A stretch of 32,000 nt of DNA from Candidatus Thorarchaeota archaeon (GCA_008080745.1 SHMX01000001.1:450001-482000), one strand, 5' to 3'; shown: positions 18,682 through 24,686, counted from the stretch's first letter. Numbers and translations: made by a program. Notes: a model not told the origin generated them from the letters alone.

Positions 18682-21324
18682 CTACACTAACGGTTGATAG
18701 CCCATGTAATTGTCCGTATCTACCGAGGTCTCAGCATGTTCTAATATCCTCTTTACACTATCTAAAGCTCCAAATCGGAACAACGGTCTATTGTTATTTC
18801 CACATTGATAGGAATAGGTACAGAGTGGACATCCATCCACAGTTTTACAGTCACATTGCTTTAGTATGATTTCAGTACGTTCCAGAGCATCGTCAAATCG
18901 TTTGAAAAGCAGCTTTGATGCTCCATTACCGCCCGGGCTACCATCATATACAAAGATAATTCCAGAGTCACCCATCGATACTCCACCTATTTCACGGGTG
19001 CCACCTCCTGTAAGCATGTCACTAGACTCAATCACAACATGCTCCAATGCATGAAAAGCTCCACCATAAAGCTCAGCAGGACCCATTACTGGTCCCTCCA
19101 GTTGGGTCATTTTTCCAGCAATGTAGTCATTGATTGGCTTGACAGGTTCTGGTGCTCGAAAAGCAAATCCACGGGTCTTGAAGCTATACTCTATCGGAGC
19201 TGGAATGTCCAACCGTTCTAACACAGTACCAGAACGAGTTTCTCGTTTCACATACCCATATACAGTCTGTGTCATTTCTAAGGTACAATAAAGCATCTTC
19301 AATCCAAGTAATTCTTGTTCCTCATTTACACTGAGAATCTTTGGAAAAGTCTGATAGAGAGGACGAGTGTGGAAAGAACGATCTTGAAAAGGAACCACCT
19401 TTGCTCGTCCAAGACCAGAAGTGTACTTGAAATCCACTGACATGAAATTCTGTCCACCATGAAGATATATTGCACCAGGATGTAACTCTTGGGCAGCCAT
19501 GGGCATTGAGCGCTCTCCTAATGTCTTACGGTCAAATTTGATTTGAACAGTATCACCAATTCCCCGTATGCTATAACTTCGCCATTTCTTCTGTGCTTCA
19601 TCATAATTTACCACTCGAATATTACCCTTAGAGTCTATCTTCAGTAGCCCTTCTTCAACCAGTTGGTCTAGAGTCTTTCTTTGCTGAGGAAAGGTATCAA
19701 TATGCAATTTTCCACTAAAAGCAGCTGCAATAAGCTGATAATAACTAACAACTTCATTATCTGGTTCCATATATGCCGCATCGATATCCGTGAAATACTT
19801 GTCAGGTTTGTGCTTGTAAAAGGAAGATATAGGATCTTTTTCTCGAAGAGCCAGTATAGCTACACTCTCCTGTCCTTTTCTTCCCGCTCTTCCAATTCTT
19901 TGTGTCAAGCGAGTTATAGAAACAATCATGCTGACTACGCTATCTAAATCACCAATATCTATCCCTAATTCAAGGGTAGGAGTTGACACTAGGATTTGTA
20001 ATTCTCCAGACTTAAATTGATTCTCAACTTTAGTGCGATACTTTTTGGGAAGTCCTGCTCGATGCACCATAGAACGAACACCGATGTCACGAAGTAACAT
20101 ATTCAATACTTCAGCTTCTGAATGGGTATTCCCGAAAACCAATGTCTTGAACCCCCCACTTCTCAGCATTTGAACTAAGTTAACTATCATGCGATACTTA
20201 CTTCGAACCTCGGGATAGTACATCATGAAATGAATGGGGCCTCTTCTTGCTGATGCGGACTCGATGAGATGTGTATCAACATCGAATAAAAGATCTGCAA
20301 ACTCCTTAGGGTTAGAAATGGTAGCTGAAGCACCTATTTTTTGAAAATCTCCACACTCAAGTTCTAGACGCTTGAGGATATAGAAGATATTCGACCCCAT
20401 CGAACCAGTATACAGATGAATTTCGTCCAATACAACGTATTTTACCGTTCTAAGAAGGGGAATAAGCTGGGATCTTGCATATCCAAGATGGTAATGAAGA
20501 ACATCAGGGTTAGTAAGAAGTAAATCAGGTGGGCAATCATATATCTTTCTTCGAGCATGTTGAGCCACATCACCGTCAAATATTGCCACGGTCAGGCTTG
20601 ATTGCTTACACATCTTCTTGATTTTCTCATATTGATCTCGTGCTAACGCCTTGGTAGGATAGACCAAAAGAGCTCGAACGCCTGGATTCATGAAGCTCTC
20701 TTGGATGGTTTCTGTTAACTTCTGAATGATTGGAAGGATGAAGCCCTCTGTTTTTCCCTGAGCCGTTGGGGCTGCAATGACCACGTTTTCACCTGATCTA
20801 ATGGCATCAAATGCCTTCTCTTGAAAGAGATAGAGATTATCGATTCCTTTGCCCTTCAGGTATTTCTTAAGCCGTCTGGAGATTAAAAGGTCGTCCAGTG
20901 GGCATCCATACTCGGCATCGGTAGCAGGCATGAATTCATACTTAACTAGATAATCTATGCCAGCGTCAAGTATGGAAGAGATTCCATCCGGAATAGTTGA
21001 TAAATCAGCACCCCCTGCCCTCACTGCTTTTTGTATCTCGGTCTTGGTTTGAACACGTCCTCGACTGTGTTGTTTCTTTGTTTTTCTTCGCGATGGTTCT
21101 GATTTGGAGGATGTTATTTTTCTTGTAGTTGTCGGTGTAATATCACCAGATTGAATGGCTTTTGTGTATGCATCATACGCATCAAACAAGTCGGTGTTTC
21201 TTCCACCAATAGAGAGTTCAGCACCACATCCCGTGCAAAGAACCGTCCATACTGGTCCTCCGCGTTTTATATCCAATTTTGAGCCGCATTTTGCACAATG
21301 TAGTACTGGCACATCAATCACCAA
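18682..21324 (-). CDS. SF2 DEAH helicase, Hrq1/MrfA (DUF1998) family, with an extra N-terminal zinc ribbon
   Basis: Q motif LYLFQ, APTAQGKT, DEIH, SATI, TPTLELGIDIG, QRIGRAGR, HALEH and C-terminal C.C..GCP.C...QCGNNN; N-terminal CAKC..CTGC. Confidence 0.9.
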   Translation of the reverse strand: MVIDVPVLHCAKCGSKLDIKRGGPVWTVLCTGCGAELSIGGRNTDLFDAYDAYTKAIQSGDITPTTTRKITSSKSEPSRRKTKKQHSRGRVQTKTEIQKAVRAGGADLSTIPDGISSILDAGIDYLVKYEFMPATDAEYGCPLDDLLISRRLKKYLKGKGIDNLYLFQEKAFDAIRSGENVVIAAPTAQGKTEGFILPIIQKLTETIQESFMNPGVRALLVYPTKALARDQYEKIKKMCKQSSLTVAIFDGDVAQHARRKIYDCPPDLLLTNPDVLHYHLGYARSQLIPLLRTVKYVVLDEIHLYTGSMGSNIFYILKRLELECGDFQKIGASATISNPKEFADLLFDVDTHLIESASARRGPIHFMMYYPEVRSKYRMIVNLVQMLRSGGFKTLVFGNTHSEAEVLNMLLRDIGVRSMVHRAGLPKKYRTKVENQFKSGELQILVSTPTLELGIDIGDLDSVVSMIVSITRLTQRIGRAGRKGQESVAILALREKDPISSFYKHKPDKYFTDIDAAYMEPDNEVVSYYQLIAAAFSGKLHIDTFPQQRKTLDQLVEEGLLKIDSKGNIRVVNYDEAQKKWRSYSIRGIGDTVQIKFDRKTLGERSMPMAAQELHPGAIYLHGGQNFMSVDFKYTSGLGRAKVVPFQDRSFHTRPLYQTFPKILSVNEEQELLGLKMLYCTLEMTQTVYGYVKRETRSGTVLERLDIPAPIEYSFKTRGFAFRAPEPVKPINDYIAGKMTQLEGPVMGPAELYGGAFHALEHVVIESSDMLTGGGTREIGGVSMGDSGIIFVYDGSPGGNGASKLLFKRFDDALERTEIILKQCDCKTVDGCPLCTYSYQCGNNNRPLFRFGALDSVKRILEHAETSVDTDNYMGYQPLV

Positions 21325-21524: not shown

Positions 21525-22583
21525 GTGGAAGAAAATAAATTAGCTAGTCAAGCCATCATTGAAAAAATTGACAAAATAGTTGATGCATCAATAGCCTGTC
21601 AGTGGAAAGATGATTTGGAGATATCCAAAAGATATTCAGAACCGCTCATCAAGAGATGCAAACAAGACATTGCATATCATTTGGAATTTCTTGCTACTGC
21701 AGTTCGCATTGAAAGCCCATCGATTTTTAGTTCGTATCTAATCTGGGTAAAAGTACTGTTTGCCAATCTCAAGGTCCCAGAAGCAGAATTTACCAAAAAT
21801 CTAGACTGCATCAAACGAGTCCTTCCCAAATATATTACAAAAAAGCTGGCAAAGATAGCTATAGAATATATAGAAATAGGATTGAAAGAATTTTTCTCTG
21901 CAAGTTCATCCATTCCAACACTAATGGGACCTGATGCCCCAATGGCGGCTATGGCAACACAGTATCTAAACTCGCTGTTGAAAGGAGACCGTCGTGCTGC
22001 TAGTGCAATGATTATGGATGCCGTCAAAGAGGGTACAGCTATCAAAGACATCTATCTCAATATCTTTGAGAGAACCCAACAGGAGATAGGGCGACTTTGG
22101 CAAATCAACCAGATTAATGTTGCACAGGAGCACTATTGTACTGCTGCAACTCAATTAATTATGGCACAATTATACCCATTCCTGTTTAATAGTGAAAAGA
22201 AAGGACATACTATGGTGGCAACTTGCATCTCTGGAGAGCTGCATGAGATTGGTGTTCGCATGGTAGCGGATATCTTCGAGATTGACGGGTGGAATACATT
22301 CTATCTTGGTGCAAGCACACCCATGCAAGATATCATTCAAACCATAATTGATCGAGATGCTTCATTACTGGCTATCTCTGCAACCCTTCCAACTAACATT
22401 CCAAAGGTACAAAATCTAATAGATGCAGTTCGTGCAAGAGAAGATTTGGGACATGTCAAGATACTTGTTGGAGGGCGTCCATTCACGATGGATACCAAAC
22501 TCTGGAGAAAAGTAGGTGCTGATGGAACTGCAATGAATGCAGAAGAGGCCGTGATAGTTGGAAACAAACTGGTAGGAGAATAA
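21525..22583 (+). CDS. Cobalamin-binding protein with an N-terminal phycobiliprotein-like globin domain (photocobilin/CarH-like sensor, no DNA-binding domain)
   Basis: Residues ~1-125 are helical with RYSEP..RCKQDIAYHL; four-helix cap with W192-x9-E202-H203; Rossmann domain GELHEIG (H240), YLG, LAISAT, ILVGGRPF, GADG. Confidence 0.85.
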   Translation: MEENKLASQAIIEKIDKIVDASIACQWKDDLEISKRYSEPLIKRCKQDIAYHLEFLATAVRIESPSIFSSYLIWVKVLFANLKVPEAEFTKNLDCIKRVLPKYITKKLAKIAIEYIEIGLKEFFSASSSIPTLMGPDAPMAAMATQYLNSLLKGDRRAASAMIMDAVKEGTAIKDIYLNIFERTQQEIGRLWQINQINVAQEHYCTAATQLIMAQLYPFLFNSEKKGHTMVATCISGELHEIGVRMVADIFEIDGWNTFYLGASTPMQDIIQTIIDRDASLLAISATLPTNIPKVQNLIDAVRAREDLGHVKILVGGRPFTMDTKLWRKVGADGTAMNAEEAVIVGNKLVGE

Positions 22584-22586
22584 TAT

Positions 22587-23783
22587 ATGAGTCGTATAGA
22601 AGATTCGAGAGGGTTTGTTGTCATCGCTAACGAAGATGGACAGATTACACACATTTTACGTGATGATATACATATTTTTGACGAATATGACTCACTGCCA
22701 ACTCTCTTAGAATTAATGGATTCTGAGAGTGTATCAAAAGCAGAGTCATTTCTCTCAGCCATTCGAACAGAGAAGGCAATATACGGATGGGAGATGAATC
22801 TTGTAATAGATGGAAAGGTAACTCTAGTTTATTTTGTGGGGGCTGCTCATCAGAATGAAATTCTTCTCATTGCTTCTACAGACCCATATGGAACCCATAG
22901 TTATTTTGATGAACTCATTAGAATCAACAATGACCAAGTAAATGCCTTTCGAACTGCTCTAAAAGATGTCTTTCTAATGTCTACATCGGAATCAGAGCAA
23001 GTTGAAGAGATGTACACTCGATTCATGCAGCTCAATAATGAGCTAGCTGCCATGCAACGAGACCTCGCAAGAAAGAACAGAGAATTGATAAAACTCAATG
23101 AACAAAAGAGTAGATTCATCGGAATGATGGCACATGATCTGCGAAGCCCTCTCACATCCATTGTACTATTGAGTGATTTTGTCCTCTTGGGTAGTAAAGA
23201 ACGATTAGCATTAGATGAAATTGAAGCTTTAGAGCAAATAACTAAAATGAGCAAATATATGGCGAATATAATCGGAGACCTACTTGATCTATCGGTCATC
23301 GAATCAGGTCACCTAACTCTGAAGAAAGAACGAAAGTCGATAGCGGAGTCAATACAGCGTTGTGTGAAACTAAACCAGTTAATCGCAGATAAGAAAGAGA
23401 TTACGATTATTTTTAGACAGGAAGGTGATATACCTGAGCTAATGATGGATGTTTCCAAGATAGATCAAGTAATAAATAATCTGATTAGTAACGCCATCAA
23501 ATATTCGCCCGAAAACACCACCATAATAATCACTCTTTGGAGTCAAAATGGGAAGGTAATTGTAGATGTTGCGGATGAAGGGCAAGGTATTCCCAAAGAC
23601 GAATTGGGCCAAATCTTTACACCATATGGTAAGACAACTGCTAAGACAACTGGCGGAGAGAAAAGTATAGGACTTGGACTGATTATTGTCAAAAAGATTG
23701 TTGAAGCCCATAAAGGGACAATCATGGTACGGAGTGAACCTCAAAATGGGGCCACATTTTCTTTTACAATCCCTATTGAATGA
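22587..23783 (+). CDS. Cytoplasmic sensor histidine kinase (PAS-like, coiled coil, HisKA, HATPase_c)
   Basis: H box MAHDLRSPL, N box NLISNAIKY, G1 DEGQGI, F box IFTPY, G2 GGEKSIGLGL; no transmembrane segment; starts 3 nt after the upstream stop. Confidence 0.95.
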   Translation: MSRIEDSRGFVVIANEDGQITHILRDDIHIFDEYDSLPTLLELMDSESVSKAESFLSAIRTEKAIYGWEMNLVIDGKVTLVYFVGAAHQNEILLIASTDPYGTHSYFDELIRINNDQVNAFRTALKDVFLMSTSESEQVEEMYTRFMQLNNELAAMQRDLARKNRELIKLNEQKSRFIGMMAHDLRSPLTSIVLLSDFVLLGSKERLALDEIEALEQITKMSKYMANIIGDLLDLSVIESGHLTLKKERKSIAESIQRCVKLNQLIADKKEITIIFRQEGDIPELMMDVSKIDQVINNLISNAIKYSPENTTIIITLWSQNGKVIVDVADEGQGIPKDELGQIFTPYGKTTAKTTGGEKSIGLGLIIVKKIVEAHKGTIMVRSEPQNGATFSFTIPIE

Positions 23784-23861
23784 CATTGGTATATCCAAAG
23801 GGTTTTAAGCATTTGTGCAAAAATCATGCACAGACGCCCCCTACCACGGGAGATGGATAAT

Positions 23862-24215
23862 ATGGTAGAAGAAATTAAAGCAGACGAACTTGAGAAAATT
23901 GTATCGGAAAACAAAGTAGTCTTTCTGGACTGTCACGCTACTTGGTGCGGGCCTTGTAAGACACTTAGCCCAATTCTTGAAGAGTTAGATGAAAAATTTG
24001 CCGAGAAAGGACTGAAGGTAGTTAAGTTGGATGTTGATCAAAACAGAGAATTCAGCATGACCCATCAGGTCACTGGTGTACCCAGTGTTTTCGTATACAG
24101 TGAAGGAAAGCAAGTAGTATTTGACGATGGCAAGGGTCAGAAGATGGATAGATTAGTGGGAGTAATGCCACCCGAAATCTACTCACAGATAGCAGAAGAA
24201 CTCTTGACAGCGTAA
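23862..24215 (+). CDS. trxA: Thioredoxin
   Basis: WCGPC active site and GVP cis-Pro loop; start placed at MVEEIKADE (track ORF begins at 23826). Confidence 0.93.
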   Translation: MVEEIKADELEKIVSENKVVFLDCHATWCGPCKTLSPILEELDEKFAEKGLKVVKLDVDQNREFSMTHQVTGVPSVFVYSEGKQVVFDDGKGQKMDRLVGVMPPEIYSQIAEELLTA

Positions 24216-24317: not shown

Positions 24318-24686
24318 ATGGTTACCATGGTAAAAGATGTAGGTCCTAAAGAAATCGAAGATATAATCAAAGACACGAGGCTTGTGTTTGTTGATTGTTG
24401 GGCTCCTTGGTGTGGTCCCTGCCGAGCACTTGCACCAGTTTTAGAGGAGTTGGAAACGGAATACGAAGATAATCCAGATGTAAAAATTCTAAAGTTAAAT
24501 ACAGAAGATCATCGTAGTTACGCAGTAGAGAAACGAATTACTGCAATTCCCTGTGTTCTTGTCTTTTTAGATGGAAAACCAGCAAGCTTTGTAGACCCAT
24601 CAAGTGGAAAAGAGGAGAAAACAGATAGATTGATTGGTCTTGCAGGACCAGAGCGATACAAAACGGTAATTGAGAACTTATTATGA
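24318..24686 (+). CDS. trxA: Thioredoxin (second tandem paralogue)
   Basis: WAPWCGPC and AIP loop. Confidence 0.93.
   Translation: MVTMVKDVGPKEIEDIIKDTRLVFVDCWAPWCGPCRALAPVLEELETEYEDNPDVKILKLNTEDHRSYAVEKRITAIPCVLVFLDGKPASFVDPSSGKEEKTDRLIGLAGPERYKTVIENLL

Follow-up and report, generated by a model that had tools for sequence, protein, structure and literature searches.

The locus considered here raises the question of what an archaeal protein that joins a phycobiliprotein-like globin to a cobalamin domain might sense, and to which partner it might report. The gene lies in a 32,000-nucleotide stretch of DNA from a Candidatus Thorarchaeota archaeon (GCA_008080745.1, SHMX01000001.1:450001-482000), hereafter the window, from whose first letter unprefixed coordinates are counted. 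A reading made from the DNA alone (the sequence-only reading) had proposed a dual-chromophore sensor that carries a bilin as well as B12 and signals in trans. We find that the protein, hereafter the sensor, is, on the evidence of sequence comparison and structure prediction, a member of the known photoglobin/photocobilin family, and belongs to the group with a C-terminal adenosylcobalamin (AdoCbl) domain. The function that we favor, and consider reasonably probable, is that of a cytoplasmic AdoCbl photoreceptor gating a co-translated histidine kinase, with a likely photoprotective output.

Domain structure and family membership

The open reading frame of the sensor starts with GTG, and its translation matches the residues quoted in the sequence-only reading, whose globin-B12 architecture is confirmed by the frame, by Pfam, by profile comparison and by structure prediction (Table 1). 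Pfam recognizes the B12-binding_2 domain with E=2.9e-14 and the B12-binding domain with E=4.6e-22, and detects neither a helix-turn-helix (HTH) domain nor an enzymatic output domain in the sensor protein. The AF2 model of the full-length protein has a predicted local distance difference test score (pLDDT) of 94.3 and a predicted TM-score (pTM) of 0.89.

The best sequence matches of the whole sensor in the PDB are the three photocobilin entries 8J2X, 8J2W and 8J2Y (E values of 1.1e-29, 1.1e-29 and 1.5e-25, over residues 141-340 of the query). The full-length model superposes on the photocobilin SasPcob with a root-mean-square deviation (rmsd) of 1.9-2.0 Å over ~206 columns, at 30% identity; the cobalamin-binding domain (CBD) of a Chloracidobacterium MerR protein (8JBS), AbPcob and CarH are also among the top structural matches. 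When the SasPcob chain index is converted to the published numbering by adding 6, W192, E202-H203, D48 and W74 of the sensor align with Trp61, Glu71-His72, Asp270 and Trp296. Trp61 and Glu71-His72 are adenosyl-pocket residues, and Asp270 and Trp296 are the two key biliverdin/corrin contacts, Trp296 touching both ring D of biliverdin and the corrin (PMC10979010). The four signatures that SignatureFinder associates with light-responsive CBDs, namely GxxW, EH, GxxH and GxxxP (PMC11796333), are all found in the sensor, as G189-R-L-W192, E202-H203, G237-E-L-H240-E-I-G243 and G262-A-S-T-P266, and are invariant across the 120 homologues described below; the W192-x9-E202-H203 and ExH240xxG signature pointed out in the sequence-only reading is present as well, its W192, E202, H203, H240 and G243 being invariant. 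The sensor is not itself a CarH/LitR protein: no HTH is seen by Pfam, and the 61 bits that NF052513 gives, where 400 are needed, come from the CBD only.

The N-terminal half had been aligned by eye with allophycocyanin (APC) alpha. PF00502 (Phycobilisome) matches residues 8-117 with E=1.3e-4 and 22.4 bits, against a cut-off of 22.2, and this match spans only positions 35-149 of the profile. A profile built from 47 N-domain sequences retrieves from the PDB the globin of SasPcob (8J2W/8J2X) at 8.3e-8 and, beginning at 4.9e-7, dozens of chains of allophycocyanin and phycocyanin, and its alignments reproduce the register chosen by eye, with the photoglobin K-C-x-Q-D falling on T-C-L-R-D of APC. 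The AF2 model of residues 1-128 (pLDDT 94.2, pTM 0.88) has six core helices plus a short helix at 31-36, and when compared with the PDB by Foldseek, a check that the sequence-only reading had proposed, its best 50 matches are all phycobiliproteins or smURFP (TMq 0.74-0.86, rmsd ~2-3 Å). As judged from these profiles and models, the N-terminal domain is a real phycobiliprotein-type globin. Because the profile aligns with the phycobiliprotein chains only from about their residue 35-40 onward, the X/Y hairpin of the light-harvesting subunits is absent from the sensor. Identity with a light-harvesting phycobiliprotein was rejected on this ground, together with the PF00502 score barely over its cut-off and the failure to find a bilin reductase in the genome.

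A homologue search over 5.8 billion proteins gave 2133 matches at E<=1e-5. The best 120 of these 2133 are all full-length relatives, of 327-368 aa, and in all 120 of them D48, L56, Y71, W74, W192, E202, H203, H240, G243, G262 and P266 are invariant; the column of L78 holds Met or Leu. At position 45, 84 of the homologues have Cys and 31 have Ser, the other 5 having Tyr, Ala or Thr. Full-length relatives are encoded in at least 583 species-representative genomes, whose taxa include Acidobacteriota, Chloroflexota, Verrucomicrobiota, Planctomycetota, heliobacteria, Methanotrichaceae and Methanobacteriaceae.

Photoglobin was described by Schneider et al. (2022; PMC8717448) as a third family of non-heme globins, occurring in both bacteria and archaea (their alignment has a Methanoregula sequence), usually fused to a B12-binding_2 domain and a B12-binding domain, placed on one or the other side of the globin, and encoded in two-component neighborhoods that include kinases. 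Its motif was named CXQD, the counterpart of the phycobiliprotein CXRD, by Rockwell et al. (2023; PMC10151467). Zhang et al. (2024; PMC10979010) reported that two bacterial photocobilins bind AdoCbl and biliverdin, and listed a structural group with a C-terminal AdoCbl domain. The sensor has the features by which these proteins are recognized. As in photoglobins, there is a 3-on-3 globin fold without the N-terminal helix pair, a helix-3 Asp with Cys, Ser or Thr three residues earlier, a hydrophobic residue in helix 4, and a fusion to B12-binding_2 and B12-binding within a signal-transduction neighborhood. As in photocobilins, its sequence holds the Trp and Glu-His of the AdoCbl pocket and the lower axial His, with D48 and W74 as the globin equivalents of Asp270 and Trp296. 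The novelty implied by the sequence-only reading does not survive this comparison, since photoglobin-B12 fusions in both domain orders, archaeal ones included, were published in 2022 (PMC8717448) and the C-terminal-CBD group in 2024 (PMC10979010); that reading knew of no characterized archaeal example, and our literature search likewise shows none that is experimentally characterized.

Many of the homologues carry automatic names such as 'methanogenic corrinoid protein MtbC1' or 'methylmalonyl-CoA mutase cobalamin-binding chain', and NCBIfam gives partial matches of the sensor to MtgC, MtbC and pyl_corrinoid, with E values of 1e-14 to 1e-17, as might be expected of a corrinoid protein serving methyl transfer. 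The scores, however, lie far under the curated cut-offs (62.9 against 370, 58.4 against 350 and 55 against 215 bits), and no methyltransferase genes are found nearby, the neighbors being a helicase, a kinase and thioredoxins. A globin domain and a photoreceptor signature within the protein, and a kinase as its conserved neighbor, also argue against a methyl-transfer role, which we regard as extremely improbable.

Table 1. Positions in the window of the sensor gene, the adjoining kinase gene and their domains and motifs.
Feature	Position	Strand	Basis
Sensor gene: photoglobin plus CarH-type B12-binding module, 352 aa	21525..22583	+	Open reading frame; Pfam; AF2 model; PDB relatives
Photoglobin domain, residues 1-125: phycobiliprotein-type globin without N-terminal X/Y hairpin	21525..21899	+	PF00502; profile; Foldseek
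C45-K-Q-D48, photoglobin CXQD motif; Asp48 aligned with SasPcob Asp270	21657..21668	+	Profile alignment
Trp74, aligned with SasPcob Trp296	21744..21746	+	Alignment; invariant in 120/120 homologues
Four-helix B12-binding_2 cap; G189xxW192 and E202-H203, AdoCbl upper-face pocket of CarH-type photoreceptors	21945..22184	+	Pfam 145-216; SasPcob alignment
Rossmann-type B12-binding domain; G237xxH240 (lower axial His) and G262xxxP266	22209..22553	+	Pfam 230-343
Gene junction: AGGAG within sensor 3' end, TAA 22581-22583, kinase ATG 22587	22574..22589	+	Sequence
Soluble histidine kinase, 398 aa, probable output of the sensor	22587..23783	+	HisKA 3.3e-12, HATPase_c 5e-27
PAS-like N-terminal kinase domain, residues 1-135	22587..22991	+	Homologous domain downstream in 56/80 loci; Atlas structure

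Cofactor supply and the globin pocket

The Thorarchaeota genome to which the window belongs (G000; 3.16 Mb, 19 contigs, 97.98% complete) encodes a CobA-type adenosyltransferase (184 bits) and two methylmalonyl-CoA mutases; on the strength of these genes, AdoCbl is used by the organism. Three more B12-binding proteins are encoded in the genome (G000:C17:1408-2112, C18:2451-3080 and C18:4764-5360), with 25-27% identity to the CBD half of the sensor. They lack the globin part, one has an in-frame TAA, and they are probably ordinary corrinoid proteins.

Taken in full, the sequence-only reading amounts to a second chromophore, a bilin bound covalently at Cys45, as at Cys81 of phycobiliproteins, which would act with B12 and add the red-light range. 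The alignments bear out its positional claims: Cys45 (codon TGC, 21657-21659) falls on the bilin-attachment Cys of allophycocyanin and Asp48, kept in 120 of 120 homologues, on the pyrrole-binding Asp, within a motif that is the photoglobin counterpart of CXRD. Asp48 and the likewise invariant Trp74 also match the biliverdin-binding Asp270 and Trp296 of SasPcob, a protein that binds biliverdin and AdoCbl together (PMC10979010). As a required attachment site, however, Cys45 is not supported, being unconserved; of the two residues whose lack of conservation would have spoken against the sequence-only reading, Asp48 holds up and Cys45 does so in part. Besides the 31 homologues with Ser, Tyr, Phe, Ser, Gly or Ala occupies this position in other Asgard copies, Tyr in Methanobacteriaceae and Ala in heliobacteria, and SasPcob itself has Thr there and binds its biliverdin non-covalently, in a flipped orientation (PMC10979010). 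Another photocobilin, AbDPcob, functions at ~20% biliverdin occupancy (PMC10979010).

The host genes that would supply a bilin, which the sequence-only reading had suggested looking for, were not found either. Searches of the 97.98%-complete genome detected no heme oxygenase (PF01126), bilin reductase (FDBR; PF05996), ABM/IsdG (PF03992), DUF2470/HugZ (PF10615), HemS (PF05171) or PduO-type transferase, and no aminolevulinate dehydratase (ALAD; PF00490); HutW-like matches proved to be ordinary radical-SAM paralogues (141 against 400 bits). The missing ALAD suggests a tetrapyrrole auxotrophy with salvage of heme and corrinoids. Among 50 other genomes carrying an N-terminal photoglobin-B12 fusion, PF01126 is present in 7 and absent from 43, the latter including heliobacteria, Methanobacteriaceae and Methanotrichaceae, and the residue at position 45 shows no correlation with it (4 Cys and 3 Ser in carriers with heme oxygenase, 19 Cys and 16 Ser in those without). 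That is, despite the conserved pocket residues, the bilin half of the sequence-only reading finds no support here; a covalent, B12-assisting bilin at Cys45 appears rather unlikely, and it is doubtful that the sensor holds a bile pigment in its Thorarchaeota host. The 43 of 50 carrier genomes without canonical heme oxygenase, strict anaerobes included, call into question whether biliverdin is a constant ligand of this globin. The pocket itself (Asp48, Trp74, His52 and Tyr71) is under strong constraint, and its role is probably either to hold a ligand of tetrapyrrole-like kind or to clamp the corrin.

The adjoining histidine kinase

The absence of an output domain, noted in the sequence-only reading, is correct for the sensor protein and incorrect for the locus, since a HisKA/HATPase_c kinase gene adjoins it; the suggestion that the sensor signals in trans holds, almost certainly with this kinase as the recipient. 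Only 3 nt separate the sensor stop from the kinase start, and the AGGAG lies 8 nt upstream of the kinase ATG. The kinase has an H-box (H183), an N box (298) and G1 (330) and G2 (362) boxes, and it has no membrane domain and no other known sensor domain. The same pairing of sensor and kinase recurs in a metagenome-assembled genome (MAG) of the same genus, in a Methanotrichaceae MAG and in Heliobacterium gestii.

Neighborhoods were counted over 80 named loci of sensor relatives, which are mostly bacterial. A kinase core begins within 900 nt past the sensor stop in 56 of the 80. In an overlapping set, also of 56 loci, the first ~135 residues of the next downstream gene are homologous to the N-domain of the Thorarchaeota kinase; this gene starts within 50 nt in 50 of the 56, with an ATGA overlap in 25. 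Across loci the PAS-like N-domain is joined to HisKA, to HisKA_2 or to long PAS-kinase-REC bodies. Thus, it is the N-domain, and not the type of kinase, that is the conserved companion of the sensor. These relatives were found by running phmmer on the loci; a word-index homologue search returned the same-genus orthologue only. The N-domain has no match in Pfam and no sequence match in the PDB, where an ABC-F match of its profile was spurious, and structure comparison in the Atlas gives TM values of 0.59-0.72 to PAS-containing kinases. Residue 14 of the kinase (22626-22628), which is Cys in 51 of the 56 partner kinases, is Ala here and Thr in the same-genus orthologue.

Complex prediction for the sensor and the kinase N-domain gave a score of 0.36, against 0.00 for the best of 3 controls, with a run-to-run contact agreement of at least 65% and a partner pLDDT of at least 69. 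Of 80 solved complexes, 58 reach the mark used for such predictions, as do 2 of 110 mismatched pairs; at scores of up to 0.60, only 7 of the 80 solved complexes reach it, and so do both of the passing mismatches. The modeled complex thus lends weak support to a contact between the sensor and the N-domain.

Two tandem thioredoxin genes (23826-24215 and 24318-24686, both on the + strand) begin 42 nt past the kinase stop, and are also found in the same-genus MAG. They may be co-transcribed with the kinase; if so, the output might be related to redox state or to photo-oxidative stress. On the other side of the sensor gene, divergent from it over a 200-nt spacer and syntenic in the same-genus MAG, lies the gene for an 880-aa DEAD/Helicase_C protein (18682-21324, - strand) with an N-terminal zinc ribbon and a C-terminal MrfA-type Zn-binding domain (MZB).

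Asgard light-related genes and the proposed function

The nearest relative of the sensor, 71% identical and syntenic, is that of the same-genus MAG, which NCBI labels Candidatus Lokiarchaeota. Within the Asgard phylum, the fusion occurs in 17 of 400 genomes (12 of 85 genera, 8 families), as open frames of ~350-383 aa, in which position 45 is Cys, Ser, Tyr, Phe, Gly or Ala and D48, W74 and the B12 signature are constant throughout. In an unrooted tree, the family of the Thorarchaeota sensor (f1) joins another (f14) in an Asgard-only group (SH-aLRT 91), and the remaining Asgard copies group with a Calditrichaceae sequence. Monophyly of the Asgard copies is thus unsupported, there being at least two groups, and as the tree is unrooted we claim no direction of transfer.

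Asgard carriers are enriched for light-related genes. Phytoene/squalene synthase is found in 10 of the 17 carriers and 51 of 383 non-carriers (one-sided Fisher test, 3e-5), photolyase in 6 of 17 and 28 of 383 (1.5e-3), and one or the other in 13 of the 17 (2e-7), these values being overstated because related genomes are not independent. The position of the genes tells more than these counts: in three families, represented by G145, G146 and G150 (f14), G326 (f22) and G333 (f23), the distance between the sensor and phytoene synthase is 1.6-4 kb. The three f14 genomes named have, in order, two UbiA prenyltransferases, a CrtD-like oxidase, CrtB, CrtI and an FAD oxidoreductase, next the sensor, and past it a PNPOx-like protein and a DNA photolyase; in G326 the sensor sits between HMG-CoA-synthase-like genes and a hydroxylase-CrtB-CrtI set, and in G333 it adjoins a kinase, 1.6 kb from CrtB. 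No carotenoid or photolyase gene lies within 5 kb of the sensor in any of the 80 mostly bacterial loci, which makes the link specific to Asgard lineages. This association appears to be new, and by analogy resembles the logic of CarH/LitR, reached through a different output.

In the f14 'light islands' (L100, at G145:C17:37000-50000, L101 and L102), the gene for the PNPOx-like protein (PF12900, 166 aa) shares the strand of the sensor gene and lies immediately upstream of it. The PNPOx-like fold includes heme-degrading and biliverdin-reducing enzymes, which makes this protein a candidate pigment enzyme; as a general bilin-enzyme partner of the sensor it was rejected, because, save for one weak match, it is confined to one Asgard genus. 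The Thorarchaeota genome has a carotenoid cluster of bacterioruberin type on contig 6 (L105, G000:C6:18000-34000), consisting of a CruF-like gene (PF04240), a UbiA-type (LyeJ) elongase and a CrtD-like gene, with divergent CrtB and CrtI; a D12-class adenine methyltransferase and then an EcoRV-family endonuclease are encoded 3' of it. Rhodopsin searches (PF01036/PF18761) gave no matches in the genome, their positive controls likewise matching nowhere.

In the mechanism that we infer, the C-terminal CarH-type module would bind AdoCbl base-off/His-on, using His240 for this and Trp192 and Glu202-His203 to hold the adenosyl group, and the N-terminal globin would pack on the corrin edge. Green or ultraviolet light would break the Co-C bond, and a shift of the four-helix cap would alter the oligomeric state or the surface of the sensor. 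The soluble kinase, co-translated with the sensor, would detect this change with its PAS-like N-domain and would then signal to a response regulator encoded elsewhere. A photoprotective response is the likely output; the genome has the bacterioruberin-type cluster described above.

Several observations weigh against this proposal. In the literature searched, no archaeal member, and no member whose domains stand in this order, has been the subject of an experiment. The source of the DNA is a marine sediment metagenome; the stretch was seen only in two DNA runs of one marine-sediment study, possibly its source, and no RNA runs carrying it are listed. The complex prediction with the kinase N-domain passed weakly, and the near-invariant Cys of the PAS-like domain is replaced by Ala in the Thorarchaeota kinase. 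No response regulator is encoded nearby, the 8 REC domains of the genome all lying elsewhere; a 146-aa stand-alone REC protein (C6:110657-110992) is among the candidate partners. The carotenoid cluster of the genome is unlinked to the sensor, and the genome search found no photolyase. Finally, the co-occurrence counts come from Asgard genomes that are not independent of one another by descent, and in many f14 genomes with carotenoid and photolyase genes no sensor is detected.

Some of these observations would suit a sensor that acts in the dark, reporting corrinoid availability, redox state or oxygen in the manner of the AerR/PpaA- or SCHIC-type B12-fold regulators, as would fit an aphotic, anaerobic sediment. 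The metagenomic source and the missing photolyase are of this kind, as are the two thioredoxin genes that follow the kinase on its strand, and many carriers are strict anaerobes, e.g., methanogens and Anaerolineae. The organism is also apparently a tetrapyrrole auxotroph, to which sensing its corrinoid supply would make sense. Against such a sensor stands the adenosyl pocket, whose W-x9-EH signature, the defining one for light-responsive CBDs, is invariant; bound AdoCbl is, moreover, intrinsically photolabile. The Asgard carriers are enriched for carotenoid and photolyase genes, physically linked to the sensor in three families, and the AppA SCHIC domain is matched in Pfam at E=0.1 only. We therefore consider a dark-acting sensor distinctly unlikely, and retain the AdoCbl photoreceptor as the preferred reading.

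A broader proposal is tentative, and we give it a rather low probability: that a B12 photoreceptor pathway in Asgard archaea, from photoglobin-CBD to a PAS-like kinase or a direct partner, switches on carotenoid/photolyase photoprotection, and that in hosts able to make neither heme nor bilins the strictly conserved globin pocket binds a tetrapyrrole that is scavenged or a second corrinoid, or else stays empty and only clamps the corrin. A pocket independent of a host bilin in such a pathway would represent a new chromophore logic for the photocobilin family. Should the protein work as predicted, it would be the first light-signaling system beyond rhodopsins assigned to Asgard archaea, and would place part of this lineage in lit habitats. 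As a compact two-gene module, a sensor and a soluble kinase with a dedicated PAS-like receiver domain, it could show how stand-alone photocobilins relay their signal. What gives the finding its value is that it comes from Asgard archaea, that the PAS-like partner domain is conserved, and that the content of the pocket is a puzzle in hosts without bilin synthesis.

Among known systems, the photocobilins SasPcob and AbDPcob/AbPcob (8J2W, 8J2X, 8J2Y) resemble the sensor in combining a CarH-type AdoCbl module and a phycobiliprotein-like globin in a single chain. The domain order of the sensor is opposite to that of these solved structures, SasPcob has Thr where the sensor has Cys45, and their outputs are a fused diguanylate cyclase or STAS/SpoIIE partners, whereas that of the sensor is a separate histidine kinase in an Asgard archaeon without recognizable bilin or heme synthesis. 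The photoglobin WP_077839650.1, the example modeled in PMC8717448, is similar in having an N-terminal globin (residues 1-130; C46, D49, L80), with Cys and Asp at nearly the same positions as C45 and D48. The photoglobin family as a whole shares the fusion to B12-binding_2 and B12-binding, the occurrence in bacteria and archaea and the two-component-rich neighborhoods; it has been described computationally only, and the text consulted mentions neither Asgard members nor a link to carotenoid and photolyase clusters. Allophycocyanin, phycocyanin and smURFP (PF00502) have the same globin fold, in which the Cys-x-x-Asp chromophore motifs align. At 12-19% identity, the sensor differs in lacking the N-terminal X/Y helices that serve trimer assembly in phycobiliproteins, in its presumed sensory rather than light-harvesting role, and in a host genome in which no lyases or bilin reductases are found. 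CarH/LitR proteins (Thermus thermophilus CarH, 5C8D; the Chloracidobacterium MerR CBD, 8JBS) share the AdoCbl-binding module and its W-x9-EH signature, and their light-controlled carotenoid genes recall the several Asgard loci in which the sensor lies beside carotenoid genes. Unlike CarH/LitR, which act directly on DNA via a MerR HTH, the sensor has an additional globin domain in place of any HTH, and would signal to a kinase.

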